In this document: positions 3,629 to 52,166 of the stretch, one piece after another | Position numbering within the stretch: position 1 is the first letter of the stretch | Layout: every line of letters starts with the position of its first letter | Source of the DNA: a virus | Taxonomy: Duplodnaviria; Heunggongvirae; Uroviricota; Caudoviricetes | Direction: 5' to 3' (one strand) | Length of the DNA stretch: 64,000 bases | Virus record (IMG/VR): IMGVR_UViG_2925897562_000001 | Program-made: the position numbers and the translations under genes | The notes under the pieces: model-generated | What the model was told of the DNA's origin: nothing | The model's input: only the letters and a program-made list of their open reading frames with translations | The model's database searches: none

Positions 3629-6359
<2,731 letters not shown>

Positions 6360-19365: not shown

Positions 19366-20217
19366 ATGATAAATTATGTCTACGGCGAACAACTGTACCA
19401 GGAGTTCGTCAGCTTCAGGGATCTCTTTCTAAAAAAAGCTGTTGCACGCGCCCAACACGTTGATGCCGCCAGCGACGGTCGTCCTGTACGCCCGGTTGTC
19501 GTTCTGCCGTTCAAAGAAACTGACAGCATTCAGGCTGAAATTGATAAATGGACTTTAATGGCGCGGGAACTGGAACAGTACCCAGACCTCAATATCCCAA
19601 AGACTATTTTATATCCAGTACCTAACATCCTTCGCGGTGTGCGTAAGGTTACGACTTATCAGACAGAAGCTGTGAACAGCGTCAACATGACCGCTGGCCG
19701 CATTATTCATCTGATTGATAAGGACATTCGCATCCAGAAAAGCGCAGGGATCAATGAGCACAGTGCGAAATACATAGAGAACCTGGAAGCAACAAAAGAG
19801 CTAATGAAGCAGTACCCGGAGGATGAAAAATTCCGTATGCGCGTACACGGCTTTAGCGAAACAATGCTGCGCGTCCATTACATTTCTAGTAGCCCTAACT
19901 ACAATGATGGTAAATCAGTTAGTTACCATGTGCCGCTATGTGGTGTGTTTATCTGCGATGAAACTCTCCGTGATGGAATTATCATCAACGGTGAATTCGA
20001 GAAAGCAAAATTTAGCCTTTATGACTCTATAGAACCGATCATCTGCGACCGCTGGCCGCAGGCAAAAATATATCGCCTGGCAGATATTGAAAATGTAAAA
20101 AAACAAATTGCCATCACTCGCGAAGAGAAAAAGGTCAAATCAGCCGCATCAGTTACGCGCAGCCGTAAAACTAAGAAAGGGCAGCCAGTAAACGACAACC
20201 CCGAAAGCGCGCAATAG
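19366..20217 (+). CDS. c1: C1 repressor of lysis
   Basis: 283 aa; matches recalled P1 C1 (MINYVYGEQLYQEFVSFRDLFLKKAVARAQ...); GGAGGAGG SD. Confidence 0.97.
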   Translation: MINYVYGEQLYQEFVSFRDLFLKKAVARAQHVDAASDGRPVRPVVVLPFKETDSIQAEIDKWTLMARELEQYPDLNIPKTILYPVPNILRGVRKVTTYQTEAVNSVNMTAGRIIHLIDKDIRIQKSAGINEHSAKYIENLEATKELMKQYPEDEKFRMRVHGFSETMLRVHYISSSPNYNDGKSVSYHVPLCGVFICDETLRDGIIINGEFEKAKFSLYDSIEPIICDRWPQAKIYRLADIENVKKQIAITREEKKVKSAASVTRSRKTKKGQPVNDNPESAQ

Positions 20218-20241
20218 TTTCCATCCGGCATGGTCAATGAG

Positions 20242-21726: not shown

Positions 21727-22919
21727 TAATCATCATCCCCGTATAGCTTGCGGGTAACTTCTTCGTCTTCCTCCTCGTCTTCGTCCAGGTCTTGTTCCAG
21801 CCATGGGTCGTTTGATACACCTTCAGTATCAACATCTCCATAACCGCCTGTATCAACGATATCGGCGATTTCTTCCCTACGCTGCTCAATCCACAATGCG
21901 GCATCGGCGCGGCGGTTGGCGGCCCGTTCTCGCGCAACTTTGTCCAGATCTTCAAGAGAAGGGCCACCGACGGCTGTTTGCCTTTCCTCATCATCGGTAT
22001 TGGTCTTAGGAGCACGCAGATCGGCTTTGATTTGCTCCAGCATCAGGGGCGGCACTTTTCCGCCATGCGCCTCGATGAATTCAGCTGCTTCCAGCACTGA
22101 CCAGTTATTTTCACGCTTTCGTTCGTATGCCAGCTTAACAATGCCAGCTTGCCCCATAGATAAAGCGTGCTTTTCCGCCTCCCGGCTTTCTTTTCGATAG
22201 TTATTCCGGATGCTGTAAATGGTGTTGATCAGGCTGCTTATCTGCGCGGAACAGCTGTTTAGCATGCTCGCGATACGATATTCAGGCGGAGTCCCTTCAT
22301 CATCGTCTTTTTGCTGATCGCGCATTTCCTGCACCAGACGAATACACGTATCCCTGGCGTTCTCCAGCATAAGGAGATGAGAAAGTGACTTTTCCAGAAG
22401 AGTGGTTTCCAGAACATCGGCCCCGGACCGACGCAACATAGCGCGCGCGGCCTTCCGCGCTTCAACGTTATCTATCAGGTAATCGCCAGCTTCGAATTCA
22501 AAGCGTTCACCATCATCATCCAGGGTGTCGCGTTCCAGGCGATCACGTAAGGTCCGGTGGGCGCGGGTGATCACGTCATGATCATCAGAACGATCATTTA
22601 TGCGCTTATTTTGGCGCTTCGCATTCTCGACTGCGGCACTGACAACGGCATTAACCCTTTGTTTTTCCGCTATTTCAGCCGCAATGTGATCACCTGCATG
22701 TTGATCATTAGAGTGATCAATGATCATGCTTTTTAGTGGCTTCCTGACTGGCTTATTTGGCTTGCGGCTGTCCGCTGTCCTGGTGTCTTCTTTGAAGGCA
22801 CGGAGATAACGACGTGCAGTATTAGGGTTAAGATTAAACTCGGCGGCATACTGTGCGATGGTGTAACCACCATCTCGCGCCAGGCGAGCAAAATTCTTCT
22901 TGTGATCGTCCCAGGTCAC
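21726..22919 (-). CDS. pacA: terminase small subunit (pacase A)
   Basis: 397 aa, GTG start with AGGAAG SD; acidic C-terminus; contains the pac site. Confidence 0.95.
22565..22727. other. pac: pac packaging site: two clusters of TGATCA/G hexamers (Dam sites) inside pacA
   Basis: hexamers at 22567, 22579, 22591 and 22686, 22701, 22714, 22720 read directly. Confidence 0.7.
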
Positions 22920-22954
22920 TTATGCTTCCTTTCGTAAAAACTCTTTTTGACGCG

Positions 22955-22976
22955 AGGGTAACGAAAGTCACATGTC
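22955..22976 (-). promoter_or_regulatory. late-promoter-like element (minus strand GACATGTGACT-N5-TACCCT) upstream of pacA
   Basis: box-N5-TANNNT arrangement about 35 bp upstream of pacA start. Confidence 0.45.
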
Positions 22977-23004
22977 AAAAGGCCCGGAACGGGCAAGCAA
23001 TCAA

Positions 23005-23427
23005 TCAGATACGTGCGGATGTGGCATTACCGTAATGACGGTGCTGACGGGCCACCTTATTGAAAAGTTGACGCGCCATTACCCAAGGCTGGTGCTCCCG
23101 GCGTTCCTTTTCGTCCTGCGTCATATAGAGTTCGTTCTGGAGTTTTTCATCAAACCGGCGCGGAGCGCGGCTACGGCGAAAGAATTCAGGATTCAGAGAG
23201 TGGATCTGAAATCTACGTGGGCGTGTACTGTCATCAATCAAAACAGACGAATACTTAGACACAGCGATAGCCTTTAAGCGCAGATAAACATCGCGCTTAT
23301 CGACATCCAGATGCGGGTATTCCTTTTCAAGAATTGCTGCGAGTTCTTTCGCTGATAGAAGAGATTTAGTGCGGATCATGTAATCCGCAATCTCGTACGA
23401 TGTTATTCGTGAGTGATTTATTTCCAT
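23005..23427 (-). CDS. lpa: late promoter activator
   Basis: 140 aa from ATG 23427; position upstream of pacA as in P1. Confidence 0.8.
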   Translation of the reverse strand: MEINHSRITSYEIADYMIRTKSLLSAKELAAILEKEYPHLDVDKRDVYLRLKAIAVSKYSSVLIDDSTRPRRFQIHSLNPEFFRRSRAPRRFDEKLQNELYMTQDEKERREHQPWVMARQLFNKVARQHRHYGNATSARI

Positions 23428-23527
23428 GAAGTGGCGTCCCTGCCAGTTAAGTAACATCCTGTCACCTACTGATTAGCCCATGTCAACTAATCAACGTGGA
23501 ATATAATACCCTCGATTAAAGAAATAG

Positions 23528-23544
23528 CAATACATTAGAGCAAT
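23528..23544 (-). promoter_or_regulatory. C1 operator (ATTGCTCTAAT core) upstream of lpa
   Basis: core match to consensus; lpa is C1-controlled in P1. Confidence 0.5.
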
Positions 23545-23545
23545 T

Positions 23546-24589
23546 TTATCTAACGCTCGACGAGTGACTTGTGATAGCGCCGACTCCAAGCGCGTAATCA
23601 AAGAACAATCGTTGATGCATCGCCAGCCTACCGTGCGTCTTCTCCCAATTATCGCGGTCACGCTCAATATCACGCTGGCATGACTGGCACAGAGGAATTG
23701 CGTAAATGTCATGCGCGCATAATCGACTATGACGAACGATATAAGGCGTAATGTGAGCGCCAGCTCCCGCCGCTCCACACCCACAGCATGGACGGGAAGC
23801 AACAAAGTCCATGTACTCAGGTAATTTTAGCGATTGCAGTTTTGGTATTTTGAAATGCGCCATGCCAGGGTCGGAGTCAACATCCACAGGGCATACTTTT
23901 GCACGCATCGGCGCGGCGCGTTCTTCCATCATCTGAACATATGCTGTAGCGCGATCGTCATACGGGCGAATATCCGCCTCTTTCAGAGGTCCGCTATCCT
24001 GCGTTGCGGCTTTCATCTTATTTATTGATATACGGCAAACTTCTTCCGGCATCAGGTGCATCATGTTGCGCATGAAAGCCCACCAGCACAGTTCCTGAAT
24101 ACTTAAATCATGGCCATCTGAAAGCCCCATTTCCTGACGGGCGACATCCAGTATCCAGTTAACGCGATTATTATGCAGCGTTTCTTTCAGCTCATTAAAA
24201 CCACGCATCCGGTAATGGTTATCGTGATGCCAGCACAACAACACCGCGCTATTGTCTCGTTCTGCGTGGACAATATGGTTGTCACACCAGCTACGATCTG
24301 CGGCCTGGCATTGCCCCTCTTTCCTGCGCAACCACGCCACCAGCGCGTCAATTCCACCAATACGGCGAAACAGTTCATCGCTGTTAAAAAACGGCTGCAA
24401 CGCCTCATTTGTTGCCATAGTTTGCTCGGAAACAACGAGGCCGTCGTCCATGTGCTCGATTAACTCACGCGGCACCGGCTCCATAATAAATTTACGGCCA
24501 GCCTCCACCAGCTTTCTGACTTCCTGATCCACTTTGAATGTGGCGACGCCAAGCTCTTTTTGTACAAAGGGAGTAATTACGGCTTTCAC
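23546..24589 (-). CDS. hypothetical Cys-rich protein downstream of doc (post-doc region)
   Basis: 347 aa; CxxC/CxxC cluster (CCGCG...CQSCQ); P1 synteny suggests pdc-region gene. Confidence 0.6.
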
Positions 24590-24616
24590 ATCACACCTTT
24601 CATCACTGATTGGGCT

Positions 24617-24796
24617 TTATCTGCTGCCCGGCATTCTCTGTTTAAGCACAACCATTTCCTGACGGCATAACACAGCAATAGCAGTCCTGGCTCCAATTTG
24701 CTTACCAACCAGGTATTGCTTTACCTTGCGGCGACTCACGCCATCAAGAAGCATCTTTAACGCTTCACGGGACAATTTGTTGTATTTGCGTGCCAT
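24617..24796 (-). CDS. small basic protein downstream of doc
   Basis: 59 aa from ATG 24796, 4 nt after doc stop. Confidence 0.45.
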   Translation of the reverse strand: MARKYNKLSREALKMLLDGVSRRKVKQYLVGKQIGARTAIAVLCRQEMVVLKQRMPGSR

Positions 24797-24800
24797 TAAT

Positions 24801-25181
24801 CTACTCCGCAGAACCATACAATCTACGTAACGTGTCGGCGACAGAAGATACAGATATCTCGCCAGTCGCAGCGCCTACAGTAAGGTCTGCCAGTTCAGGT
24901 GAATCAAATACCTGCACCCCGTTACGGCGTAGAAATAGCAGCGCACTGTTTAGCGCGGTACGCTTATTGGCATCATTGAATATATGCCCTCTCGCTGTAG
25001 CCACCAGGTAGGTGGCGGAGACTTCGAAAAGGTCGGTGATCTCTTCGTAGGCAACTCTGGCCTGAACTCTCCCGATAATGGCCTCTGCCCTACCCGGATC
25101 TGACATTCCCGGCAGGCCGCCGTAGCGGCTTATATTCGCATCATGAAGCGCAATAAGTTCTTCCGGTGATATATGCCTCAT
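24801..25181 (-). CDS. doc: Doc toxin (Fic-family kinase) of phd-doc addiction module
   Basis: 126 aa; matches recalled P1 Doc ([22 protein letters not shown]...). Confidence 0.97.
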
Positions 25182-25402
25182 TATCGGTTAACCAGTTCCT
25201 TGTTGGTGGAGTCCAGGGTGTCAAACAGGGATGCAAATTCAGCATCCAGCGCCGCTTTTTTGTAGGCTTCGAAAGTAGCCTTGCTGACAATTACTGCTGG
25301 CTCACGGCCTCTGCGGGTGATTTCAACCTCTTCCCCGGCTTCAACATTGTTGAGCACTTCAGAAAGGTTGCCACGCGCGGTACGGAAGTTAATGGATTGC
25401 AT
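25181..25402 (-). CDS. phd: Phd antitoxin
   Basis: 73 aa from ATG 25402 ([32 protein letters not shown]...); stop overlaps doc start. Confidence 0.95.
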
Positions 25403-25474
25403 AAACACCTCGTGTACTCGTTATGTGTACACAATTATAAACTTCACAGGCATAAAGCACCAGCACTTTGCAGC

Positions 25475-25864
25475 TTAAATAACCGGACAATCATCAAATT
25501 CCCCACTTCGGGCATCATTGATGACATGAGTGATCACACCAAAAACAGCATTACTGCCCGTGTATCCATCGTCATCTACTGGTAACGCCTCTTTCTTCCC
25601 GGTGCTTAAATCCTCCAGGTGCTGGCGCGGATACTTCCTGTATCTCTTTATGCGATATTCACCCTCCATAGCGCACACAAGCAGAGAACCATCAACCGGA
25701 GTAAGCGAGGAATCAACCACCAGCAAAGCACCCTGCAATATTCCCTCACGGTGATGGCTATCAGCTGCCCGCATGAAGTAGGTCGCTGAAGGATGTCTAA
25801 TTATCTGCTGATCAAGAGAAATTCGGCTTTCAACATAATCCGCCGCAGGAGAAGGGAAGCCCAT
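25475..25864 (-). CDS. humD: UmuD'-like SOS mutagenesis protein homolog
   Basis: 129 aa, S24-peptidase/UmuD-like C-terminal domain without the N-terminal cleavable arm. Confidence 0.9.
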   Translation of the reverse strand: MGFPSPAADYVESRISLDQQIIRHPSATYFMRAADSHHREGILQGALLVVDSSLTPVDGSLLVCAMEGEYRIKRYRKYPRQHLEDLSTGKKEALPVDDDGYTGSNAVFGVITHVINDARSGEFDDCPVI

Positions 25865-25882
25865 AGCGTTTTACCTCAATGA

Positions 25883-25902
25883 TACTGTTTATTCATACAG
25901 TA
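25883..25902. promoter_or_regulatory. LexA box TACTGTTTATTCATACAGTA upstream of humD
   Basis: perfect CTGT-N8-ACAG palindrome. Confidence 0.75.
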
Positions 25903-25987
25903 TACATTGAAAAGGCATAGTTTGTGAAAGCGGGGTTTGTAGGCGCGCCACGCTGGGGGCTAATCACATTTCTCCCCCATCTTGCCG

Positions 25988-26239
25988 TTATTTTTTTGGT
26001 GCATCCTCGTTCTGATACACCGGATCGCTCCCTTTTGGCAACTGGAGGCTTAACTGCCGGTAGTGCCGTAGCCGTTCCATGAAATAGGCGCGCAGGTTTT
26101 CCGGTTGCTCACGGGCCACCTGCTCTGCAATCACAGGTATATTCAGCCGTTCTTTGTAAGCAACGCCGCTGGCGGCAAGGTCTACGTTCACCTTGTCTCG
26201 CTCTTCCTGGCTTTTAGCTGCTATATTTCGATCTGACAC
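25988..26239 (-). CDS. hot: homolog of DNA polymerase III theta subunit
   Basis: 83 aa; [43 protein letters not shown] closely resembles recalled E. coli HolE; GTG start with GGAGG SD. Confidence 0.85.
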
Positions 26240-26271
26240 AAGAAACCTCCAGGAGTTAGTGGATCAGGCAC

Positions 26272-26622
26272 ATGCACAATAACGTTCTCAATGTTAGCCG
26301 TTCAATTCAGACAATCAGAGACTGGACCAGTGTGGTGGCATCAATCCCATTGCGGAACAGCATAGACGAACTGCAAATTCGTGTATTGAATCCGAATCAG
26401 GCTAATAAGCAATTGCGCTTTATTTTGACGCTGAAAAGTGAAACAGAGGGGATAAAGCACAGCGTAAAAGTGTTTTCTGAGGCCATTCTGCTTAATGGGA
26501 AGCTCCGGCATCTGGTAAGGCCAGAACGTCAATATCCTGACGTCCTGGCGCGTGAAAAAGACCTTCTTTCTGAAGTTCAGGATAGGGTGATCGATTTCGT
26601 CAAATGCTATCCCCTGCATTGA
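26272..26622 (+). CDS. hypothetical protein (only plus-strand ORF in a minus-strand cluster)
   Basis: 116 aa ORF, weak RBS. Confidence 0.3.
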   Translation: MHNNVLNVSRSIQTIRDWTSVVASIPLRNSIDELQIRVLNPNQANKQLRFILTLKSETEGIKHSVKVFSEAILLNGKLRHLVRPERQYPDVLAREKDLLSEVQDRVIDFVKCYPLH

Positions 26623-26891
26623 GGGCAGGTGTTCCCTTCCGCAAAGTAGGGAAAATTGCTATCAAGTTCATCACACCATCTGCGTTGGTCGTAGCACCAA
26701 AACGCCTCCCACGGTGCACGGAAATACTTCATCCACCAGGACACTCGATCAGGTATATCTGCTGGTGGCAGTTCTTCTGGCAATAATTTGCCTGATAATT
26801 CCCTTTCCGCCCGCGACAGCATTTTTTTGAGGCTCGCGTTCTCTTTTTCAAGCTCATCTACGCGCACCTGTAATTCAGCTTTCGTTGGCAT
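26607..26891 (-). CDS. hypothetical coiled-coil protein with C-terminal CxxC
   Basis: 94 aa from ATG 26891; overlaps upstream ORF end. Confidence 0.45.
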   Translation of the reverse strand: MPTKAELQVRVDELEKENASLKKMLSRAERELSGKLLPEELPPADIPDRVSWWMKYFRAPWEAFWCYDQRRWCDELDSNFPYFAEGNTCPQCRG

Positions 26892-27813
26892 GGTCCACCT
26901 CATGCTTTTCAGCCACCAGCGGCAATAAAGCCCTGGCCATCTTATGAACCAATAGTGCATCAATAATGCCAAGCGTATGCCCCGGCTTAATGTTTAATGC
27001 CGCCTCAAGGTGACACCTTTCCAGGTCACTTTTCTCGGCTTGTTTATGATGATCTGGTGTAATAACGTCGCCCAAAACACGGCTAATTCTTTCTCGTAAT
27101 TGCTGGGTGCCAGCACACTTGATCGCTGTATCGTGGAGACGGTTAACCAGTTCGCGATAAACATGCGGCTTAATGCGGATACGTTCACCGGTGACGCCCT
27201 TTCCTGGCGCTGGCACCGAACTATCCGGAATATCCGGATAGTTGCCAGCCTCGTAAGCTACCCACAGCCAGTGCATGAATGTTTCAGTGGACACACAACC
27301 ACAGTCCACATCGATTTTCCCGCGTTGCTGTTCCAGCCATTGCCCAAAATCCAACCTGTAAGTCTTACTTTCAAGTTCATCACCATTGAACTCGACTTTC
27401 TGCGACGCTATGAGAGCTGATTCGTATTGTTCGCGAGTGACAACTGACTGGTATTCATCGCTATCAAGGCCACCAATTGGAAGCTCAATCTCACAACAAA
27501 AATTGCGCCCAAAGAAAGTGTCTTTTTTGTGGTCTGAGCCAAAAGCAAAAGTCGCGCATGGTGCCATTAAATTGACACTGGGTAGGTAACAATAACTCAT
27601 TCCATCAGGCCACCCGCCGCACTTAGGCAGCTCCTTCACTAACAAGTCGATAAGCTTCATTTTTTTATCATCTTTGCAAGCCGCCAAAGCCATTTGGGCA
27701 AGTGCCAATACTTCATCTGCCGTATATCCAGCACCGTGACCATACATTTCGATACGGGAAATAATCTCTGATATACGCTCTTCAGTGATTCTGGTCATTT
27801 CTTTTTGCGCCAT
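26875..27813 (-). CDS. hypothetical protein
   Basis: 312 aa ORF, ATG start. Confidence 0.6.
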   Translation of the reverse strand: MAQKEMTRITEERISEIISRIEMYGHGAGYTADEVLALAQMALAACKDDKKMKLIDLLVKELPKCGGWPDGMSYCYLPSVNLMAPCATFAFGSDHKKDTFFGRNFCCEIELPIGGLDSDEYQSVVTREQYESALIASQKVEFNGDELESKTYRLDFGQWLEQQRGKIDVDCGCVSTETFMHWLWVAYEAGNYPDIPDSSVPAPGKGVTGERIRIKPHVYRELVNRLHDTAIKCAGTQQLRERISRVLGDVITPDHHKQAEKSDLERCHLEAALNIKPGHTLGIIDALLVHKMARALLPLVAEKHEVDHANES

Positions 27814-28169
27814 TTCTTTTCACATTCCTTAGTCCATTTTTCAATGTTCATTTTGGCAATATCGGTCATTCCATCACCTAAGAAATACTTTCTCCGGTAT
27901 GTCTTGCACTTAAACCACACTACAACAGCCACCAGCCAGAAAATAAAAGGCCATACAGCAATACCAACGACTGCCGCGATAAAGCTCAATATCCATAAAT
28001 GAAGCTCTCCAACTTCTGTTTCCGGCAATATTCTTAAAGAATTAAACAGTAGGCTGAACGCATGGTCGTATGCATTGGCAGTATAAGACATGCAATCCAT
28101 ATAATTAAAGTCATAGCCTGCGGCTGCCGCCCATAATGGGCGGTCAAGAAAATGTTTTAGTGTCATCAT
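27795..28169 (-). CDS. hypothetical membrane protein (2 predicted TM helices, basic C-terminus)
   Basis: 124 aa; LWILSFIAAVVGIAVWPFIFWLVAVVVWF; AT-rich. Confidence 0.55.
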   Translation of the reverse strand: MMTLKHFLDRPLWAAAAGYDFNYMDCMSYTANAYDHAFSLLFNSLRILPETEVGELHLWILSFIAAVVGIAVWPFIFWLVAVVVWFKCKTYRRKYFLGDGMTDIAKMNIEKWTKECEKKWRKKK

Positions 28170-28175
28170 ATAAAT

Positions 28176-28469
28176 TTAAGGTTCAGACCAGTTATCTTCA
28201 ATAGCAATGCTTAATCTTTGTAGCCATTCTGCTAATTTCAGCATTGCTTCTCTTTCGCTTAAACCACGAGGAAAATCATCAAGCGAAATTGTTGGCTTGA
28301 AGCCCCCGTAATTATCCATTTCAACTGTCAGATTTTGCTCCAGCACGGTATTCCTTACGCGGCTATTGTGCCGAAGCAAATATACTGAACGTGATTTATT
28401 GGTTTTATGGTCAAACTGATATTCGGTAAGTATCATCTGGCTTTTGCCATGACTATTACCTCTCCACAT
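28176..28469 (-). CDS. hypothetical protein
   Basis: 97 aa from ATG 28469 (ORF track opens at TTG 28565); AT-rich. Confidence 0.45.
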   Translation of the reverse strand: MWRGNSHGKSQMILTEYQFDHKTNKSRSVYLLRHNSRVRNTVLEQNLTVEMDNYGGFKPTISLDDFPRGLSEREAMLKLAEWLQRLSIAIEDNWSEP

Positions 28470-28647
28470 ACTTACCTCACTTAATAAAACAACTCCATGC
28501 GTAGTTGATGATTTTTTCCCACGTAATATAAATCTGCACTCCGGCAGTAAAACCAAAGCCAACAATTGCTGAAAAAATCAAAACATTTACTTTTGACATT
28601 ATAAATTTTCTCTCGGTGTCGTAGGTGATAGCACCATAATTGATAAT

Positions 28648-28881
28648 TTAGTGAGTTAGCAGTTCCATTTTTTGGATGATTTCCGCATGAGCATCATCGT
28701 TATCAACACTTAACTCGTTTAATGCCTCTCGCACTACATCAACTTCTTCAGGCTGAAAGAAGTCGTCGCGGTAATCACCAAATAGAACCGAAACCAGCCT
28801 GCCACCAGCAACATCAAGATTGGCGCTAACAGGTGGCTCTTTGCCATCCTCAAATTCGACAACAAAAGTTAATTTTCCCAT
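28648..28881 (-). CDS. hypothetical acidic protein
   Basis: 77 aa ORF, AT-rich. Confidence 0.5.
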   Translation of the reverse strand: MGKLTFVVEFEDGKEPPVSANLDVAGGRLVSVLFGDYRDDFFQPEEVDVVREALNELSVDNDDAHAEIIQKMELLTH

Positions 28882-28957
28882 CGTTACCCCCAGAAGATAA
28901 AAATAGCGGCAATCGCCATAGCTACGCCTACAATCGCAAATGCTTCAGGCCAGCTCA

Positions 28958-29218
28958 TTACCGCACCTCAAGTCTCCATGCCGCCTGACCAATCCGGCTG
29001 GCATGGGTATCTTTGGATACTGTTCCGTCTTTAGCCAGCTCCATAAGAATTTTGCGCAAATCTGCCGAGCGCCATTCTTCATCAGGAAATTCCTTCTCCA
29101 TTGCCAACCGCAGATTCCAAGTTGCTATCGTGAATGGATATTCACCGCCGAGAGCTTTCTCTTGTAGGGCAGCACGGGAACGCATCACCTGCAAAACCTT
29201 CTCTTTTACATCCATCAT
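28958..29218 (-). CDS. hypothetical protein
   Basis: 86 aa from ATG 29218, ATGA overlap with upstream gene stop. Confidence 0.5.
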   Translation of the reverse strand: MMDVKEKVLQVMRSRAALQEKALGGEYPFTIATWNLRLAMEKEFPDEEWRSADLRKILMELAKDGTVSKDTHASRIGQAAWRLEVR

Positions 29219-30096
29219 TTCGCCTCCTGCGGCGGTTCTGGTAGCGGCATCCAGTGTGATGGAATCCACGACGCACCAGGAATTATCCAACCATCATTAG
29301 CGTCAGGATGTCCCGGTATGTAAGTCGCCCACTTCATTCGCCAGTCACCTTTCCCGTCAAACTCCCTGGCAACAAGAACAGCTGTTTTGCTATCCGGCAT
29401 TCGCTCACTACAGCTTATCCAATCATCCAGAGTTACCGGAGAATTGCCATTTACCAAGTCAGCTCGAACATATAGCGTGTCATCATGGTGCTGATTGTGG
29501 CTGCACCACGTTAATTCGCTTAACTCGCCATCTTCTGGCCATACTCCAGCCGTTTGCAGCCAGATATGGGCTGGCGCATCTTTGCAAGGTGTATTAACTG
29601 GCAACTTGTAAGTTTGGCTTACAGGTTCGGCACCATGAAGCATGGCGTCGCTCCGCTCTATGCCATCCAGCGCGATTCGCAGTGCATGAATTGTGGTAGA
29701 GCTATCGTTTGGGGCTATTCCATATCGCTCGAATACAGCTAAATGGTTGCGCATAATCTCAGGCGTAAGCTCTTTGTAAGCATAAGCAAGAGGCTCTGAT
29801 GCATTATCCGGCACAACCGACGCAGGCGCGGCAGCATAAACAGGAATAACGTCCGCTTGCTCTTTATTGCTTTCATCCGTTAAAGCCCAGAATAATTTCC
29901 CGGCCGGATGTTTGAAAATATAAGCAACTGGCTCTGCTTCCAGCGATGCCAGCGTAATTTCAGCCAGCTTGAGGTGAATAACCGCCGCATCATAAGCGCC
30001 TGGGACTCTTCCCACCGCAACGCGAAGAACCTCAATATTCTTCTTAGCCTGCTCAATCAACTGCTCTTTGGTGAACTCTTTGGTAATCGTGATCAT
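29215..30096 (-). CDS. hypothetical protein with DUF551-like C-terminus
   Basis: 293 aa; C-terminal WISCSERMPD...WMPLPEPP resembles the phage DUF551 pattern. Confidence 0.6.
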   Translation of the reverse strand: MITITKEFTKEQLIEQAKKNIEVLRVAVGRVPGAYDAAVIHLKLAEITLASLEAEPVAYIFKHPAGKLFWALTDESNKEQADVIPVYAAAPASVVPDNASEPLAYAYKELTPEIMRNHLAVFERYGIAPNDSSTTIHALRIALDGIERSDAMLHGAEPVSQTYKLPVNTPCKDAPAHIWLQTAGVWPEDGELSELTWCSHNQHHDDTLYVRADLVNGNSPVTLDDWISCSERMPDSKTAVLVAREFDGKGDWRMKWATYIPGHPDANDGWIIPGASWIPSHWMPLPEPPQEAK

Positions 30097-44881: not shown

Positions 44882-45180
44882 TGCGTCTCCTTTTCCCTGA
44901 CTAAAAGCTCATCCAGCTTGCTTTTATGTTTGAGCACATAGCCACATATTTTTCCTTTGGAGCTAATTTGCGGAATGGAATAATATTCCGAAAATACTAA
45001 TTCAGCCTTTTCTAAGACAAGTGAAACACCATAGCGCGCAACATGTCTGTCGGTCATTTTTGCATCACTGAGATTACCTTTAATTGATAACCAGTCGTTG
45101 AGGTACATATGGTTGCGATTGGCTTTTTTCAGCATGTTGCTCAACCAATTTTTATTACGCTTAGTTAGTTTCCGTTGCAT
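44878..45180 (-). CDS. hypothetical basic protein (AT-rich), coupled between ban and the glycosyltransferase-like gene
   Basis: 100 aa; start overlaps ban stop; markedly lower GC than flanks. Confidence 0.55.
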   Translation of the reverse strand: MQRKLTKRNKNWLSNMLKKANRNHMYLNDWLSIKGNLSDAKMTDRHVARYGVSLVLEKAELVFSEYYSIPQISSKGKICGYVLKHKSKLDELLVREKETQ

Positions 45181-46544
45181 TAATAATCCTCTTGCCAGTC
45201 AGCACCGGCATAGTTATCAAACCGTGAGTATTGGCCGTTAAAAGCCAATCTCACCGTGCCAATTGGGCCATTTCGTTGCTTACCGATAATTACCTCGGCA
45301 ATGCCCTTCATTTCGCTATCCGGGTGATAAACTTCGTCACGATACAGAAACATGATCAGGTCTGCGTCCTGCTCAATTGCTCCTGATTCACGTAAATCTG
45401 AATTTACCGGTCGTTTGTCCGCACGCTGTTCAAGCGATCGATTAAGTTGTGACAATGCCACCACCGGTACTTGTAATTCCTTCGCCAAAGCCTTCAGTGA
45501 GCGAGAAATCTCGGCAATTTCCAGCGTTCGGTTATCTTGCAGCTCGGGGACGCGCATAAGTTGCAGGTAGTCGATCATAATCATGCTCAAACCACCATTT
45601 TCTTTATAAACACGACGAGCGCGGGAACGAAGCTCTGTAGGTGTCAGGGCGCTTGAGTCATCAATAAAAATATTCTGCTTGTCCAACAGAATCCCCATTG
45701 CGCCAGAAACCCGCGCCCAATCCTCGTCGTTAAGTTGCCCTGTTCGAATACGAGTCTGATCAACGCGTGCAAGAGAAGCCAGTGAGCGCATCATCAGCTG
45801 GTGGCTCGGCATCTCAAGGCTAAAAACCAATACGGGCTTATCGTTACGGACTGCGGCATTTTCGACGAGATTCATCGCAAACGTAGTCTTCCCCATCGAT
45901 GGGCGGGCGGCGACAATAATGAGATCGGACGCCTGAAGTCCTGCCGTCTTCTTATTGAGATCGGTAAATCCGGTATCAAGCCCTGTTACACCATCATGCG
46001 GTCGCTGAAACAACTCTTCTATGCGAGATACCGTTGCATCGAGAATGCTGGCGATATCTTTTGGACCACTACCGCTCTTTTGTCGTTTTTCAGCTATTTC
46101 AAAAACGCGGCGCTCGGCCATATCCAGCAATTCATTGCTGCCCCTGCCATCCTGCGCATATCCAGCTTCAGCTATTTCATTTGCGACGGAAATCATTTCA
46201 CGAACAACCGCGCGTTCACGAACGATATCCGCATAAGCACAAATATTTGCCGCGCTGGGCGTGTTCTTTGACATCTCCGCAAGGTACGCAAAACCACCGG
46301 CGCGTTCTAATTTACCGTTCTGTTCAAGTGCTTCAGCAAGTGTTATCAAATCAATCGGTTTGCCATGACTTAATAACCTCTCCATCTCACTGAAAATTTC
46401 ACGATGAGCACTGGTATAAAAATCATCAGCAACTATACGATCTACAACTTCATCCCAGCGGCAGTTATCAAGCATTAAGCCACCAAGTACAGCTTGTTCT
46501 GCACTAAGGGAATTTGGCATGGATTCAAGAGGGGATGCAGACAT
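45180..46544 (-). CDS. ban: DnaB-like replicative helicase
   Basis: 454 aa from ATG 46544; Walker A ARPSMGKTTFAMN; DnaB-family C-terminal domain. Confidence 0.9.
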   Translation of the reverse strand: MSASPLESMPNSLSAEQAVLGGLMLDNCRWDEVVDRIVADDFYTSAHREIFSEMERLLSHGKPIDLITLAEALEQNGKLERAGGFAYLAEMSKNTPSAANICAYADIVRERAVVREMISVANEIAEAGYAQDGRGSNELLDMAERRVFEIAEKRQKSGSGPKDIASILDATVSRIEELFQRPHDGVTGLDTGFTDLNKKTAGLQASDLIIVAARPSMGKTTFAMNLVENAAVRNDKPVLVFSLEMPSHQLMMRSLASLARVDQTRIRTGQLNDEDWARVSGAMGILLDKQNIFIDDSSALTPTELRSRARRVYKENGGLSMIMIDYLQLMRVPELQDNRTLEIAEISRSLKALAKELQVPVVALSQLNRSLEQRADKRPVNSDLRESGAIEQDADLIMFLYRDEVYHPDSEMKGIAEVIIGKQRNGPIGTVRLAFNGQYSRFDNYAGADWQEDY

Positions 46545-46829
46545 TAGCACTCCACCCAGGCGTGCTGAATGTCAGATATAATCGGCATACTCAAATCACT
46601 CCTAACGATATGAGTCATCACCAGAAAATCAGGATTAATGCGCCGGACTCTTCCCGGCTGTCACACCAAATCGCCAGGATGGTGAGTCCCTGTATCCGCT
46701 ATCCCTCCAACGGTGACTTGCACATTCCGGCTACCTGGTTTGTTGCCTGAGCTAGGGGAAAAGGTAACCCCTTTAACGTCACCAGACCGCTAACGACGCA
46801 TGTGCCAGACGCCGTGTTACAACCAAATA

Positions 46830-46905
46830 TGGTGGCCCCTACCGGACTTGAACCGGTGACCGTGCGATTATGAGTCGCCAGCTCTAACCACTGAGCTAAA
46901 GGGCC
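46830..46905 (-). tRNA. tRNA-Ile2 (anticodon CAU, lysidine type)
   Basis: 76 nt cloverleaf; near-identical to recalled E. coli ileX; acceptor GGCCCTT, T-loop GGTTCAAGTCC, 3' CCA. Confidence 0.85.
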
Positions 46906-46932: not shown

Positions 46933-47760
46933 TTATTTCACCGGAACAAACGGAACAGCGGTATTACTGGTCATATACTGCGGTAATGTACCGTTCCATT
47001 TGTTGATCGCTTCCAACTCCATAACACCGGGGTTCTGGCGCAGAGCTTCACCACGTAAACGAATGGCATCAGCTTCGGCCTGGGCTTTTGTGCGAATAGC
47101 ATCAGCCTGTCCGGCAGCTTCCGCGCGCAGCATGTTGGCCTCTGCTTCACGTTGTTTGACCTCTTGCTCGCGTTGCAGGGTTTTTTGGTTTGCCGTGACT
47201 TTGGCGTTAATACTGTCAATAACTGTTGGCGGGTATTCTGGCTTACCTACATAAGAGAGGCTCATCACCTGAATGCCGATTGGCGTCATTTCTTCCTGAA
47301 TGTCTTTAAGGGCTGCATCAAGCAATTCGGATTTGCCACCGTCGATAAATTTGTCGGTTGTCATTTTGCTGGCTAACCGGTTCAGAGCATCTGCAACCTT
47401 CTGGCGTAGATCGGTATCAGTAATATCATCTACACCTTTGCGATAGGTCTGAAATACCGTTGTGACTTTTGCTGGATCAACCTTGTAGGCTACGCCGATG
47501 TGGTAACCAATGGTTGTTCCGTCGCTCATCTGGAAGCTGAACGGCTCATCGTATGTCTTCATTTGCTTAAAGGTCGGGAAGATATAAACTTCAGTATTCA
47601 AGCCTGTCCAGTAGCGACCAACGCCAACTACTTCACCGATACCTTTATCATCCCCCAGCTTATTTACTTTGATCCCTACGTTACCTGGCTCTACCCGATC
47701 GCATCCGGTCAGACATAAAGAACCCAAAATAATCGCTGCACTAATCAACGTTTTTTTCAT
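46933..47760 (-). CDS. plp: SPFH/band-7 domain lipoprotein
   Basis: 275 aa; lipobox LCLTGC; C-terminal Ala/Glu-rich coiled coil. Confidence 0.8.
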   Translation of the reverse strand: MKKTLISAAIILGSLCLTGCDRVEPGNVGIKVNKLGDDKGIGEVVGVGRYWTGLNTEVYIFPTFKQMKTYDEPFSFQMSDGTTIGYHIGVAYKVDPAKVTTVFQTYRKGVDDITDTDLRQKVADALNRLASKMTTDKFIDGGKSELLDAALKDIQEEMTPIGIQVMSLSYVGKPEYPPTVIDSINAKVTANQKTLQREQEVKQREAEANMLRAEAAGQADAIRTKAQAEADAIRLRGEALRQNPGVMELEAINKWNGTLPQYMTSNTAVPFVPVK

Positions 47761-47977
47761 TAATTAATTTCCTGGTTTTTTCACGAAAAAAGACTACTGC
47801 GAAAGCTGGGTAAATGAGCGCGAGAAGGACTCCCAACAATACAAGTATTGTGCTGTTAGATGAGATCATATTTGGCAAAAGCCAAACATACAGAACCAGT
47901 GACACAATCAAACAGAGGACGGCATAAATATATAACCGCACCCATAGCGTTCGACATTTGTTCGGATTGTTCTGCAT
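47741..47977 (-). CDS. upl: small two-TM membrane protein upstream of plp
   Basis: 78 aa hydrophobic ORF overlapping plp start. Confidence 0.55.
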   Translation of the reverse strand: MQNNPNKCRTLWVRLYIYAVLCLIVSLVLYVWLLPNMISSNSTILVLLGVLLALIYPAFAVVFFREKTRKLINEKNVD

Positions 47978-48240
47978 CCTCTCACTCCATTATTTAACGA
48001 ATAAAAAAGCTGCGGTGCCGGGTGCCTCCCGGTGTCCTTTGGCTGGTTATCCACCGTGGACGGGGAAACAAGGAGAAATGAATGGACTGATATAACCATT
48101 TCCCCGCGTGCGCTTAGCCGCATTCACCGCAATGGTAAGAGCACTTGGCTGGCTGGGCGGCGATGACGCCTGTACGCATTTGTTGATCCGGTTCTGCTTC
48201 CGGCATTCGCTTAATTAGCCAAATACTCTTAACGTTGCGC

Positions 48241-48327
48241 TGGCGGAGAGTAATGGAATCGAACCATCATCGCTTGCGCTATGGGACGGTTTTCAAGACC
48301 GCTTGAGCACCATGCTCCCTACTCTCC
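48241..48327 (-). tRNA. tRNA-like element, long variable arm, anticodon loop CTTGAAA (UGA, Ser-like), non-canonical D-arm
   Basis: 7-8 bp acceptor GGAGAGT/ACTCTCC, T-arm GATGG-TTCGATT-CCATT, 3' GCCA; hand-folded only. Confidence 0.35.
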
Positions 48328-48748
48328 AGTGATTGTGGTGGTCGGTGCTGAACTCCGACACAGGGTTGTAGCAAGCCCCGCAAAGCGCGCACTACTGTAG
48401 TTGCGGCACATCAGCCTGTGCATTCACCACAATGTTGAGAACACTGGTTGTCACGCGGCAACGCAACATTTATTCATAGATTGGGATATGACCCCGTTAC
48501 GCCAATGTTCTCAACGTTGTAGTGCCGGTTACGGTTCCGGCCAGGCCTCTTCCTCAACGGGGTGTTCTCCATACGGACTACCGTTTATTGGTCGTTCCTG
48601 CGGTTTATGTTGTGAAGCCAGATGCTTATCTTCTGGTTGCTTCTAAGAGCTGCACTTCATCACAACGGTAAGGGTACTTCGTAGGGATTCGAACCCTCTG
48701 CCAAGCTCGGCGATCTCCGACGTCGCAAAATACCCTTACCTGTTGTGC

Positions 48749-48824
48749 TGGTGCCGATTAACGGACTCGAACCGCTGACATCCTGCTTACAAGGCAGGCG
48801 CTCTACCAACTGAGCTAAACCGGC
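48749..48824 (-). tRNA. tRNA-Thr (anticodon UGU)
   Basis: 76 nt; GCCGGTT...GCTCAGTTGGTAGAGC...loop CTTGTAA...GGTTCGAGTCC...CCA. Confidence 0.85.
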
Positions 48825-48826
48825 AT

Positions 48827-48902
48827 TGGCGATGGTGGATGGATTTGAACCATCGACCCGTTGATTAACAGTCAACCGCTCTAACCGCTGAGCTACACCA
48901 TC
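48827..48902 (-). tRNA. tRNA-Asn (anticodon GUU)
   Basis: 76 nt; loop CTGTTAA; T-loop GGTTCAAATCC; 3' GCCA. Confidence 0.85.
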
Positions 48903-49367
48903 ACTTGCCGGGTACGTCTCCGGCGAGGGCTTCCACCTCCGTATGCTTTTCGGCGCACCGCGCCCTGGCTGCAATTCGGTAACAGGGGATGCATAACCCT
49001 GGCTTCCAGCGTGATTAGCGCTTTCAGCATGACGGGATATACCCGTAAATTCGTGGAACTGTACCCAAAGTGCTGTTAAGCACCGCTGTTACGCTGAAAA
49101 GAAGACGCAACAGGAAAGGACGCTGACCAACAGATGGCCCCTTCTCGTTCATCTGGTTAATCACACCAGCGCCCTTACCTGTTGTGCCTCCCCGTTCCCT
49201 AATACACAGACGGGGACACTCTGCGGTCGATTTTTTGACGGGGGACGACTCATACCCCGTGGCGTCTGGCTTCTTAGGCCGCTACCATCATCAGATCATC
49301 GTTTGCATTTACTTTAATGGTCAGTTTCTAAAACGCCGCAAAGTCGCTAACCATGACGAAAACCCTG

Positions 49368-49393
49368 AAAAAAACGCCCACCCGAAGATGGGC
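49368..49393 (-). terminator. rho-independent terminator on minus strand (GCCCAUC-UUCG-GGUGGGC + U7)
   Basis: 7-bp stem, UUCG tetraloop, T7 run; about 180 nt downstream of the perfect C1 operator. Confidence 0.5.
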
Positions 49394-49570
49394 AAACTGG
49401 AAGCTCGTAACGCACTTCGGTGTTGCCACTTAGGCGTATGGTCAACCTGGCAACTCGGCGTCATGAGGGGGAAGGAGTCACTACCCCGCCATACTTGCCG
49501 CCGCGCCTGTCGCGGCTAACAGCTAAATCGCTCTATAAATCACGATTCATTGAGGCGATATTACACTAAT

Positions 49571-49587
49571 AAATTTATTAGAGCAAT
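49571..49587 (-). promoter_or_regulatory. C1 operator, perfect consensus ATTGCTCTAATAAATTT
   Basis: 17/17 match, leftward orientation toward tRNAs-upl-plp-ban. Confidence 0.75.
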
Positions 49588-52166
49588 ATAGCCATAACGT
49601 CATGAGCAACACCACGAGTGTCTCCCTTACAAGACACAGAACGTCTGGCAAAGAGAGGTTCCACTCTGAAGCCTCTGTCCTGATAAAGTTCTCTGACGTT
49701 TGGCGCGCCACTGTTAGTAATGAGTACCTTTGCACCTCGGCGATGAGCATCCGTCAACAGAGACACCAGGCGTTTTTGCTCTTCAAACTTAAAGTCATGA
49801 CCGGAATAGTTCGTGAACCCCTCTGTATTGGGGAGCGGTTCATACGGCGGATCGCAAAAGATGACATCTCCTTCTCCGGCAGCTTCAATCACTGCTGCAA
49901 AATCACCGCATACAAACTCAGACCGCCCTTCCGCACCGAGGAAGGCTTCCATCTCCTGTAATGGGAAATACGGAGTTTTATACTTCCCATAACCGACATT
50001 GAACTCACCGGCCTGGTTGTAGCGCGTCAATCCGTTAAAACAATGACGGTTCAGGAACAAAAACGCCGCTGCGCGATGTAAATCATCATAGACTTGTTTG
50101 TTAAACGCATTCCGTACTGCCAAGTATCCCTCCTGGGTGTTGTAGTCCAGGAAAAAACGATGTGCCAGAGTGATAAGTGAATGCTCCTCGCGTTGCAGAG
50201 TCTTGTAAAAGTTAATCAGGTCAGCATTCACATCATTTAGCAGATTTTCCTGGTATCCGGCATTCATGAAGACAGCTCCGCCACCGACGAAAGGTTCAAT
50301 CAGGCGCTTCCCTTCTGGCAAATAGCGAAAGATTTGTTCCAGAACACCAAATTTTCCACCGGCCCATTTGAATATGGACCGTTCGAATTCTGCCGCTGGT
50401 TTAACTTTTCGCTCTTTTGTTTCACTTCCTTCTTTCTGCCGACATACGGCCTTAGTAATCCGATCGCCAATCCAGCGCATTACTGGTATTGCCATACTAT
50501 TGCCGATCGCTTTGTAACGCGGTCCGTCAGCTGCAAGCATCGCGGCCTCTTCTTCGCTTAAATCTGGATAGTGATTGCGAAGATATGCCAGTTCATCTGA
50601 ATTAACTTTTTTACGCTTTTCCGTCGGGATCAACGTATGCCCATCAGGAAAACCTTGAAGTCTCTCACATTCGACAGGGGTAAGACGGCGAACACTCATC
50701 ATATGAGGTAAGTAACCATTCTCACCTAATTCGCCTTTTTCAATACTTTTCTGCCCCCCAAAAGATAACGCAACGGCGTCAGCTGTAGCGCGGGAATCAA
50801 GAGTAAAACTTATCTCTTTTTGCCACCCTTTACCTTGCGGTCCAGCATCATCTTTTCGCCCAATTTGTGCATGTTGTAGCGAATACGCAACAGCTGGTGG
50901 GCAGCCTGCATTTGGATTGCTATTAACAGAATTACCTGATCGTAAAGTCGGAGAACATTCAATAGAAACATCTTGTCCATAATCTTTGCAGGAAAAAGCT
51001 ACAACTGCATTTTCTTGACCATGGTTACGACCAATAGTATGTGCCAATTCACAATTAACATCAGGATCTTGTGTTCCATGAATAGCCATCACCGCCAGAT
51101 GTTCGTGACTTTCTTGTGATCTGGCACGAAGAGTGCCTGCACCTTCACGCCAACTACCAGCACCAGTACTACTGAAAACAGCTAAATCGGTTGCATCTTT
51201 AAAATCTCTGGCCTTGACAGTAGAAGCAGTCTCATCATCAGCATATTCGCCAAATGCAACCATTCGATAAGCACCAACAAGCCCACTTCCGCGCTGCGCA
51301 AAAATCTCTTGGTTACTTGCACCGATTCCGCCAGTATTGTGTGACTGGTTAAGTGTCGGGTGAGGATTTACAGGGTTATCCCAATGGCTCCCGCTTTTAA
51401 TGCCATTTCCAACATTTCCGGCAACTTCCTTCCCCTCGCCTCTGCTCGGCGCAATATTCCGGCGCACGCCTTCGAACTCAAAAAGTACCGTTGCGGGATC
51501 GAGGTCTGTTCGAGCACTTGCGACAACAAACACGCGTCGGCGTCGTTGTGCCACTCCGAAGTATTGGGCATCAAGGATTCTCCAGGCCACCTTTCGCTGC
51601 GGTCCATAAATACAACCACACTGCGGCCACTTTGGAACATGGCAACCGGTTTTGCCATCCCACCGCCAGAACGCGTTGCTTTTTCCTGATTCAGGTCGAT
51701 CACCTGGTTCAAATGGCACATCTTCTCCAGCCAATCCAGCAAGGAAACATCCGAAGGCGTTATCTGCCGATGACAAGACTCCTGGGACATTTTCCCAGAC
51801 GATAACGGCTGGTTTGAGAAATGACTCAGCCCGTTTGTCGTCAATTGCATTTGCAAGCTCCACATACTTTAAAGTTAGCGCGCCACGCTCATCATCAAGC
51901 CCACCACGTAATCCCGCGATACTGAATGCCTGACAAGGTGTTCCCCCGACGAGCACATCAGGGGATTCGATTTCCCCAGCCAGGACTTTTTTGGCAAGTT
52001 TTGTCATGTCGCCAAGGTTGGCGACATGGGGCCAGCGGTGCGCAAGAACGGCAGATGGAAAAGACTCGATTTCAGCAAACCACACCGGACGCATACCCAA
52101 CGGTTCCCAGGCAATACTCGCGGCTTCAATTCCACTGCAAACAGATCCATAGCACAGCTCTTTCAC
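49578..52166 (-). CDS. dmt: bifunctional DNA methyltransferase (C5-cytosine MTase N-terminal domain plus Dam-like N6-adenine MTase C-terminal domain)
   Basis: 862 aa; GTG start overlapping hrdC stop; motifs [12 protein letters not shown] (PCQ) and FKWAGGK...DPPY. Confidence 0.9.

Follow-up and report, generated by a model that had tools for sequence, protein, structure and literature searches.

Positions 47,978-49,587 of a 64,000-nucleotide stretch of viral DNA (Caudoviricetes; IMG/VR record IMGVR_UViG_2925897562_000001; the whole stretch is hereafter the window) are, with a probability of roughly 70%, the long and mostly non-coding leader of the C1-repressed operon for ban, a DnaB-like helicase gene, in a phage-plasmid of the P1 family. 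The Op72/Pban region, the 'dicF-like' leader and the phage tRNAs of this locus are already in the P1 record, and its tRNA-Ser is known from D6-like prophages and routinely annotated. The sole content that is possibly new is that a structured module in the leader and a set of long hairpins represent conserved, structured and unnamed RNA families common to lambdoid and P1-type phages. Coordinates are window positions, and all features lie on the minus strand unless marked otherwise.

By sequence search, about 2.2 kb surrounding the tRNA island matches P1-family phages. Positions 47990-49600 are 100% identical to the Escherichia fergusonii plasmid NZ_CP057563.1 in PLSDB, where 801 plasmids match the same interval, 462 of them with a query coverage of at least 80%. 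The island is colinear with the P1 reference NC_005856 from the end of dmt to ban, and the P1 record annotates Op72ab, P1ban, P2ban, a 'dicF-like region', trnA (Asn), trnT (Thr), trnI (Ile2) and ban. The gene order in RefSeq is identical, namely Dam methyltransferase, tRNA-Asn, tRNA-Thr, tRNA-Ser, SPFH protein, tRNA-Ile and dnaB. The locus is already known and commonly annotated, and is ordinary for P1/P7-type phage-plasmids. An earlier note on this DNA, made from its letters, had described the island as remodelled. This is overstated, as the P7-type arrangement is common and a set of four tRNAs (Asn, Thr, Ser and Met/Ile2) has already been reported for D6-like plasmid prophages (PMC6799933).

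The upstream end of the leader is formed by an operator and a promoter, the parts of which are the following.

49587 to 49571, minus strand: C1 operator Op72a (Oban a), a perfect 17-mer ATTGCTCTAATAAATTT, identified by an exact consensus match and by the same position in the P1 annotation.
49560-49576, plus strand: C1 operator Op72b, an overlapping inverted half-site ATTACACTAATAAATTT with 2 mismatches, identified by the P1 annotation and by inverted repeat I2.
49558-49563, minus strand: predicted -10 hexamer TAATAT of Pban, placed by alignment to the P1ban -35/-10 of NC_005856.

The perfect operator claimed for 49571-49587 is indeed present, as an exact minus-strand match to ATTGCTCTAATAAATTT, and together with Op72b it constitutes the known bivalent Op72ab of P1, the second half-site of which the earlier note did not mention. 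The -35 hexamer TTGCTC of Pban lies inside Op72a, with a spacing of TTGCTC-17 nt-TAATAT. Alignment to P1 suggests that operator and promoter overlap, the P1ban -35 falling within Op72a and the -10 within Op72b, and transcription would start near 49551. Operator-like 17-mers with at most 2 mismatches number eight in the window, against 0.02 expected by chance; the six beyond Op72ab (1-2 mismatches; at 2630, 18708, 18791, 33256, 39021 and 53417) are expected for a P1-family genome.

Downstream of the predicted start, the leader consists of two segments.

49422-49515, minus strand: conserved structured leader module, with about 82% identity to lambdoid phages and pair conservation over 48 sequences.
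49368-49421, minus strand: P1-type small-RNA-like segment in the DicF slot, a single-stranded CCGAAGUGCGUUACGAGCUUCCAGUUU with an intrinsic terminator behind it; the P1 record labels the corresponding stretch 'dicF-like region'.

From Pban to the terminator, an untranslated RNA of about 183 nt is predicted. It ends in a stem at 49394-49375 of 7-8 bp (5 of them G-C) with a 4-nt UUCG loop, followed by a run of seven T residues at 49374-49368, confirming the description of about 200 nt that have no credible open reading frame (ORF) and end at a strong terminator at 49368-49393. The module, of about 95 nt, is composed of three local hairpins (CCGCG/CGCGG, GGGG/CCCC and GUUGCC/GGCAAC) and a long-range helix (GUAUGG/CCAUAC). 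Over 48 distinct sequences, 97.3% of the pair cells hold a standard pair, compared with 32-50% when the partners are slid, and compensatory changes are found at four pairs. Among the Rfam covariance models, no family covers the module.

The interval 49515-49418 is homologous to many lambdoid phages, at about 82% identity. In the case of mEp460, the matching segment abuts the 5' end of a genuine DicF (76.7 bits), upstream of dicB. A pattern scan recovered more than 100 loci with the module, each followed by a short RNA-like segment with an intrinsic terminator; the slot contents are mostly canonical DicF, the rest being divisible by eye into about nine other classes, including the P1 type. Such a variable slot after the module suggests a family of uncharacterised DicF-slot small RNAs. 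Other slot types seen in lambdoid contigs (L008-L129; for instance L008 2001-2173 and L009 2001-2170) include a cdtI type, an L117/L123 type, those of L028, L017/L062, L039 and L054, and others.

Both the alignment and the slot survey place a terminated RNA directly 3' of the conserved module of the dicBF untranslated region. In the dicBF operon, the 3' end of DicF is generated by internal termination or RNase III and its 5' end by RNase E, with dicB lying downstream; intra-operon termination in lambdoid dicBF yields the small RNA, and the genes beyond it are expressed by read-through (PMC5069750). Because the P1 leader has the same architecture as dicBF, the suggestion of a C1-repressed small RNA or attenuated leader, made in the earlier note, is the best reading of this segment and is supported by homology to the DicF position. 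By this analogy, the P1 family probably makes a repressor-controlled small RNA, of different sequence, in the DicF slot. The meaning of the P1 'dicF-like region' is taken here from the GenBank annotation only.

The leader continues into three tRNA genes.

48827-48902, minus strand: tRNA-Asn (GUU), by ARAGORN and Rfam (74.5 bits).
48749-48824, minus strand: tRNA-Thr (UGU), by ARAGORN and Rfam (72.9 bits).
48241-48327, minus strand: tRNA-Ser (UGA), type II, called Ser(tga) by ARAGORN, with 25 of 26 cloverleaf pairs and a RefSeq tRNA-Ser on the identical sequence.

ARAGORN, Rfam and the P1 alignment find tRNA-Asn and tRNA-Thr downstream on the same strand as the operator, and tRNA-Ile2 and ban further on, as had been proposed; Asn, Thr and Ile2 are the only ones that reach the Rfam tRNA gathering score. 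The type-II element with a UGA anticodon at 48241-48327 is also present. Its earlier label of pseudo-tRNA is not upheld, as the element has 25 of 26 pairs, is conserved, and is annotated as tRNA-Ser in RefSeq. It has an acceptor stem of 7 bp, a D-stem of 4 bp whose 5-nt loop retains GG, an anticodon loop CUUGAAA (U33; purine at 37), a long variable arm with a GNRA-type GCAA cap, the T-arm GGUUCGAUUCC, G73 and an encoded CCA. The sequence contains G73, G1-C72, G2-C71, A3-U70 and the long variable arm, elements that are associated with serine identity.

The element is found in P7 (where it is unannotated), D6, Cyrano and CMS-2020a, in a diverged form in rV5-like lytic phages, and in 329 of 5,426 complete E. 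coli genomes, nearly always on plasmids. In P7 and Cyrano all 26 cloverleaf pairs are intact, and RefSeq records carrying the identical 121-nt sequence have a tRNA-Ser feature from the NCBI pipeline. Given this conservation in phages and plasmids, the RefSeq annotation and the four-tRNA set of D6-like prophages, the element is apparently a non-canonical but genuine tRNA-Ser(UGA). Its anticodon starts at position 33, as opposed to positions 35-37 in most of 117 UGA-anticodon tRNAs; the comparison set for D-arm length came from a broad tRNA-Ser pattern scan of viral contigs, which returned mostly canonical tRNA-Ser. A tRNA-Ser(UGA) with a short Sec-like D-arm (anticodon at 33-34) was also seen in L132 (1501-1591), L198 and L207. 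Recurring in rV5-like phages and in some viral contigs of more than 350 kb, the compact tRNA-Ser would appear to be a phage-typical form.

Four long hairpins are interspersed with the tRNAs.

49099-49193, minus strand: long hairpin A, the most divergent member, the 5' arm of which is direct-repeat copy 1 (49172-49187); fold -48.8 kcal/mol, z = -5.4.
48658-48750, minus strand: long hairpin B, the 'tRNA-like fragment' of the earlier note, the 5' arm of which is direct-repeat copy 2 (48733-48748); z = -4.8.
48424-48524, minus strand: long hairpin C, the 'inverted repeats' of the earlier note (inverted repeat I1), followed by GGUGAAUGC; z = -5.1.
48128-48239, minus strand: long hairpin D, with the 3' arm AGUGCUCUUACCAUUGCG; z = -2.1, the 5' part being co-conserved with the rV5-like tRNA-Ser.

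The four copies share a stem of about 20 bp, have a variable interior and are mostly followed by GGUGAAUGC. The family 5' arm reads CACAAC(A)GGUAAGRG..., and the 3' arm ...CUCUUWCCRUUGYG, usually followed by GUGAAUGC. Within the window the family is restricted to the island, and it is not in Rfam. The 16-nt direct repeat occurs in exactly two copies at the positions previously reported, a situation found in 0 of 100 shuffles, and it is the 5' arm of hairpins A and B. Copy 2 begins 1 nt past tRNA-Thr, and hairpin D begins 2 nt past the CCA of tRNA-Ser. The inverted repeats placed at about 48428-48520 are real, being the 23-nt arms of hairpin C (48425-48447 and 48502-48524; 87% complementary).

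For the tRNA-like fragment at 48662-48745 (-42.3 kcal/mol, z = -4.8), the T-arm-like loop within a hairpin is present. The segment is a member of the long-hairpin family, and neither ARAGORN nor Rfam calls it a tRNA. Its arms (48667-48679 and 48728-48740) are 92% complementary, and the interior, which is also found in the unrelated phage contig L254, contains AGGG-UUCGAAU-CCCU, which resembles a T-loop, together with a hairpin like that of a D-arm. A short stem with the canonical T-loop-like motif GTTCGAnTC was observed at 48683-48698 in the window and in the hairpin interiors of L253, L258 and L131, two cargo types other than that of hairpin B carrying it; the motif may represent a tRNA relic or a mimic of the tRNA elbow.

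Thirty distinct arm pairs, from P1-like and unrelated phage contigs, retain pairing at 17-20 of 20 positions, and many positions are occupied by two to four standard pair types. The sense strand of these arm pairs has 55 G·U pairs, and in 25 of the 30 it folds with the greater stability (-24.3 kcal/mol, versus -19.8 for the antisense strand). Arm covariation, the strand bias of G·U pairs and sense-fold stability together indicate that the hairpins are under selection for strand-specific structure, and not for DNA identity alone.

This evidence bears on a different view of the hairpins, in which they are purely DNA-level 'boundary sequences', that is, conserved linkers for homologous recombination between modules that have no function as RNA. 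The concept is established for lambdoid phages (cited in PMC3029335), and the CUS-3 record annotates homologous late-leader segments as bsq3 and bsq4. In addition, the hairpins are situated at the junctions of exchanged modules in different phages, and indel and mosaic junctions fall within their arms. However, a linker requires identity between genomes and not complementarity within a molecule, whereas the arms co-vary, keeping 17-20 of 20 pairs over the 30 variants, and their mismatches lean to G·U on the transcribed strand. A role confined to DNA is thus doubtful, and strand-specific structured RNA is the preferred reading of the hairpins.

The family is not confined to P1-like islands. In P22-like late leaders, a family hairpin lies directly after the tR' terminator. 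The CUS-3 hairpin (L365 1186-1270), which starts with the 16-nt repeat, sits between the bsq4 and bsq3 'boundary sequences' of that record, and SPN9CC (L366 1175-1328) carries a tRNA-Asn/tRNA-Thr pair at the late-leader hairpin site. Since the same hairpin follows tR' and the Asn/Thr pair recurs in SPN9CC, the P1 island and the lambdoid late leaders have building blocks in common. From hairpin C to tRNA-Ser, the window is also homologous to the Q-holin leader of CUS-3, as far as the point where bsq3 begins.

The 3' arms (for instance 48128-48145 in the window) retain a boxA-like UGCUCUU(U/A)CC even where this impairs the stem, leaving a U·U mismatch or a G·U, which suggests that the sequence of the 3' arm is under selection as well as its pairing. 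The motif is found in species-representative genomes across Enterobacterales (L368-L386), the genera including Serratia, Pantoea, Klebsiella, Kluyvera, Citrobacter, Rouxiella, Erwinia, Raoultella, Kosakonia and others. It was also seen in three unlikely hosts, namely Martelella and metagenome-assembled genomes of Geobacteraceae and Clostridia, where it may reflect contamination.

The known boxA sequences are UGCUCUUUAACAA in rrn and CGCUCUUA in lambda, and the resemblance of the 3'-arm motif to them raises the question of antitermination. Here, the module, the hairpins or both would be cis-acting signals (put-like or boxA-type Nus sites) that counter the leader terminator and Rho along the 2.7-kb untranslated leader. 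The elements do occur in long untranslated phage leaders that require read-through, as in ban, dicBF and the Q-dependent late leader after tR', and the boxA-like stretch is kept even where pairing suffers. However, this stretch is sequestered in a stem of about 20 bp, and a termination-suppressing module would work against the terminated small RNA that directly follows it. Sequence similarity to the HK022 immunity region, with putL and putR, is also lacking: in a blastn-short comparison with HK022 20000-32000, the leader, the island and the module of mEp460 gave only chance matches of at most 14 nt. Antitermination is therefore quite improbable as compared with the reading of the hairpins as processing structures, considered below.

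Other identities were rejected. Integron attC core sites have the form RYYYAAC ... GTTRRRY, and the arm ends GCACAAC ... GTTGTGG/GTTGTGA are each one or two positions off this consensus. Weak Rfam matches to mir-465, mir-1271, YrlA, permuted tmRNA, RefB11, CcsR1 and ALIL are far under their gathering scores and reflect long hairpins or tRNAs. For contig L314, a context search turned up no annotated relative.

The hairpin arms also figure in the rearrangement of the island. A survey of 128 contigs with the 16-mer, about 100 of them P1-like and the other 29 in unrelated contexts, revealed many island layouts, in about ten classes by tRNA content. These include the following.

Asn-Thr; Asn-Thr with an extra hairpin; Asn-Tyr-Thr; Asn-Thr-Ser (the window/P7 type).
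Arg-Tyr-Thr with or without Ser; Asn only; no tRNA.

In contig L101 (1424-1500), a clean deletion extends from the first arm copy to a later one, removing hairpin A, Asn, Thr and hairpin B, and L302 (2755-3100), also a natural deletion variant, carries a hybrid Asn/Thr tRNA joined at the common CAGCGGTT. In RCS47 and 813R1 there is an additional hairpin, and the sequences overlap by 23 nt at its junction. The window is itself a mosaic, with a switch at 48104-48148 inside the 3' arm of hairpin D and the GGUGAAUGCGG motif; upstream of the switch it is P7-like (94.5% overall, with the leader at 99.5%), and downstream it is 99.6% RCS47-like. Because the breakpoints of L101, of RCS47/813R1 and of the window junction lie in hairpin arms, short-homology recombination at these arms is well supported by the alignments.

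The earlier note had proposed that an Asn/Thr cassette was inserted between the two copies of the 16-bp repeat by short homology. Short-homology recombination survives this comparison, as exemplified by L101 and the window junction, but the footprint of a single Asn/Thr insertion does not. On sequence grounds, the repeat is a recurrent module boundary, since it forms the 5' arm in a hairpin family that has 3-4 members in each island and is also found in unrelated phages. The Ro157-type islands (Asn-Tyr-Thr) have a single copy within 2 mismatches, because the second arm has diverged there, as against two copies in the window.

More broadly, that note implied a recently remodelled P1 tRNA region, with a decayed tRNA fragment, a pseudo-tRNA and a repeat-bounded Asn/Thr cassette. 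P1 does lack the Ser element and has a different 150-nt filler in its place, the repeat is exact and non-random, L101 has neither Asn nor Thr and retains one repeat copy at the junction, and the canonical T-loop sequence inside hairpin B could be a tRNA relic. Set against these points, the Ser element is intact, widely conserved and annotated as tRNA-Ser, the repeat is a hairpin arm that also occurs in unrelated phages, the Ro157-type islands keep one copy, and the P7-type layout is common and no recent oddity. Recent remodelling is thus unlikely, and an ordinary ban leader built from exchangeable units is preferred.

The remaining features lie between tRNA-Ser and the end of the operon.

48011-48131, minus strand: STnc100-like structured element, opening with GGUGAAUGCGGCUAAGCGCACGCGG; Rfam STnc100, 37.8 bits, E = 4e-6.
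47741-47977, minus strand: 78-aa predicted membrane protein, not Upl; annotated 'membrane protein' in Ro157c2YLVW.
46933-47760, minus strand: 275-aa SPFH/Band_7 lipoprotein, not Plp; Pfam PF01145, E = 1e-30; 'SPFH domain-containing protein' in RefSeq.
46830-46905, minus strand: tRNA with a CAU anticodon (P1 trnI, tRNA-Ile2); ARAGORN Met/Ile2(cat), Rfam, and P1 and RefSeq annotation.
45180-46550, minus strand: ban, downstream of tRNA-Ile2.

The STnc100-like element does not reach the gathering score of STnc100 (RF02076), which is 47. Its closing helix UGCGGUG/CACCGCA and the U-run behind it lie immediately before the membrane-protein ORF, and the element could be a second internal terminator or a small RNA. 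Its opening motif GGUGAAUGCGGCURAGCGCACGCGG is also found after DicF in mEp460, and STnc100 has been reported to mark phage regions (bioRxiv 10.64898/2026.05.13.724894).

The membrane-protein and SPFH pair occupies the place of P1 tciABC, as it does in RCS47, 813R1 and RefSeq plasmids. These two ORFs had been labelled 'upl-plp', which is a misassignment; in P1, the annotated plp and upl cover the hairpins from the other strand (48400-48778, plus strand, in the window; 3619-4188 in L001). Whether the segment between tRNA-Thr and the SPFH operon encodes the Plp lipoprotein and Upl on that strand has to be considered, as the P1 and RCS47 records annotate both genes here and the window keeps 98% amino-acid identity to Plp. 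However, an in-frame stop interrupts plp in the window and in Ro157c2YLVW, the plp copies of P7, RCS47 and SJ46 are broken or truncated, and the window, P7 and D6 have no upl. Neither Plp nor Upl has a Pfam family match, RefSeq annotates no gene in the region, and the C-terminus of Plp is the antisense of tRNA-Thr. A coding function for this strand is very improbable indeed, and plp and upl of the P1 reference are unlikely to be real genes; the segment is better read as non-coding leader.

Taken together, these features suggest the following mode of expression. With C1 bound at Op72ab the operon would be silent, and with the departure of C1 Pban would fire. The first ~183 nt would form the structured module and a small-RNA segment with a strong terminator, in the layout of the DicF locus, and termination, possibly with 5' trimming, would release a P1-specific small RNA. 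Polymerases that read through would go on to transcribe tRNA-Asn, tRNA-Thr, tRNA-Ser(UGA), the membrane protein, the SPFH lipoprotein, tRNA-Ile2 and ban. The hairpins between cargo units would act as double-stranded processing or insulating stems, most likely as RNase III substrates, and would set the precursors of the tRNAs and the small RNA apart from the mRNA further along. In the DNA, the hairpin arms may provide the short homologies by which cargo is gained, lost and exchanged. The identities of the parts, the homology to the DicF locus, the conservation and covariation of module and hairpins, the strand bias of the hairpins and the rearrangement endpoints in the arms are observations; the transcription start, termination with read-through, the small RNA and its targets, RNase III cleavage and the charging of tRNA-Ser are what we infer.

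Several observations weigh against this account. The DicF (RF00039) covariance model, with a gathering score of 48 bits, has no match at E <= 10 in 47700-49900, although a search of the same kind detects the mEp460 DicF at 76.7 bits, and the P1-type segment is therefore not a member of the DicF family. A search for targets of the small RNA within the window gave no convincing candidate; one 12-nt complement at ~4447-4458, within an ORF and a long way from the start of it, can be accounted for by chance, the other matches being self-antisense. Much of the module covariation comes from one split between the P1 and lambdoid lineages, and is therefore phylogenetically shallow. Folding of the mEp460 and cdtI slot regions revealed no obvious stem enclosing DicF that could serve as an RNase III site, which makes the analogy to RNase III processing indirect. 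The stability of hairpin D is only slightly above that of shuffled sequence (z = -2.1). As for tRNA-Ser, the window copy has one broken pair in the variable stem, A48xG57 (U48->A), and although ARAGORN calls Ser(tga) at 48241-48327, the element is below the Rfam tRNA gathering score, the best model in the clan being tRNA-Sec at 42.9 bits versus 47. This failure can be attributed to the compact D-arm.

It is possible, and is put forward here tentatively, that the module and the hairpins are two undescribed conserved RNA families, that temperate phages of enterobacteria share them as a system of non-coding cassettes, and that P1 makes a C1-controlled regulatory RNA on induction. If so, the module would be a fixed 5' structure presenting an exchangeable slot, filled by DicF, by about eight other variants or by the P1-type segment, and the hairpins would be strand-specific processing stems bracketing exchangeable tRNA and small-RNA cargo, with the same kit reused in lambdoid dicBF, lambdoid late leaders and P1 ban. 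Hairpins formerly treated as DNA 'boundary sequences' show covariation and strand bias, which leads to the hypothesis of RNase III punctuation in tRNA-bearing phage leaders. The picture of P1 regulation is unchanged unless transcript mapping confirms the RNA species.

Among known systems, P1 itself is colinear with the window at 97% from dmt to window position 48334, and again from tRNA-Ile2 through ban. The operator, promoter, leader terminator, Asn/Thr pair and hairpins A-C are common to both, while the filler that replaces tRNA-Ser in P1 has its own version of hairpin D. In the leader module, the window is about 90% identical to P1 compared with 99.5% to P7. P7 and D6 share the window's tRNA-Ser(UGA), followed by hairpin D, whereas their downstream genes are of the terB/tciA type in place of the SPFH pair. 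D6 has no match to the operator and leader module of the window (49560-49397), and its similarity begins at ~49396, at the terminator.

In the rV5-like lytic phages (for instance phita32), the identity is 83% over tRNA-Ser and about 90 nt downstream. The rV5-type and window tRNAs have in common the compact Sec-like D-arm, the anticodon loop and the T-arm; in the rV5 type the D-loop is 1 nt longer and the variable arm is different, still with a 7-bp stem. In the case of the STnc100/PasD prophage small RNAs, 48011-48131 aligns to STnc100 positions 31-147, including the closing helix and the GGGAGGCACCCGG hairpin, but the window element differs in its sub-threshold score and in its location within the ban operon leader, upstream of an ORF.

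The lambdoid late leaders provide a counterpart of the hairpins. CUS-3 carries the hairpin sequence GCACAACAGGTAAGAGCA...CTCTTATCGTTGTGGTGAATAC directly after tR', matching the window family. The lambdoid boundary sequences belong to a Q-dependent late operon, whereas the window hairpins belong to a repressor-controlled early operon, and strand-biased compensatory pairing is not predicted by the DNA-linker concept (bsq3/bsq4; HK620 comparison). For the leader, a counterpart is the DicF locus of Qin and lambdoid prophages (RF00039), which shares the module directly 5' of a short terminated RNA, distal genes that need read-through, and, further downstream, the GGUGAAUGCGGCU(R)AGCGCACGCGG motif that is also found in the P1-type leader. 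The P1-type segment differs in being unrelated in sequence to DicF, with a terminator of GCCCAUC-UUCG-GGUGGGC versus GGCGG...CCGCC in DicF, and in P1-likes about 1.25 kb of tRNAs and hairpins lies between the module and the shared downstream motif.

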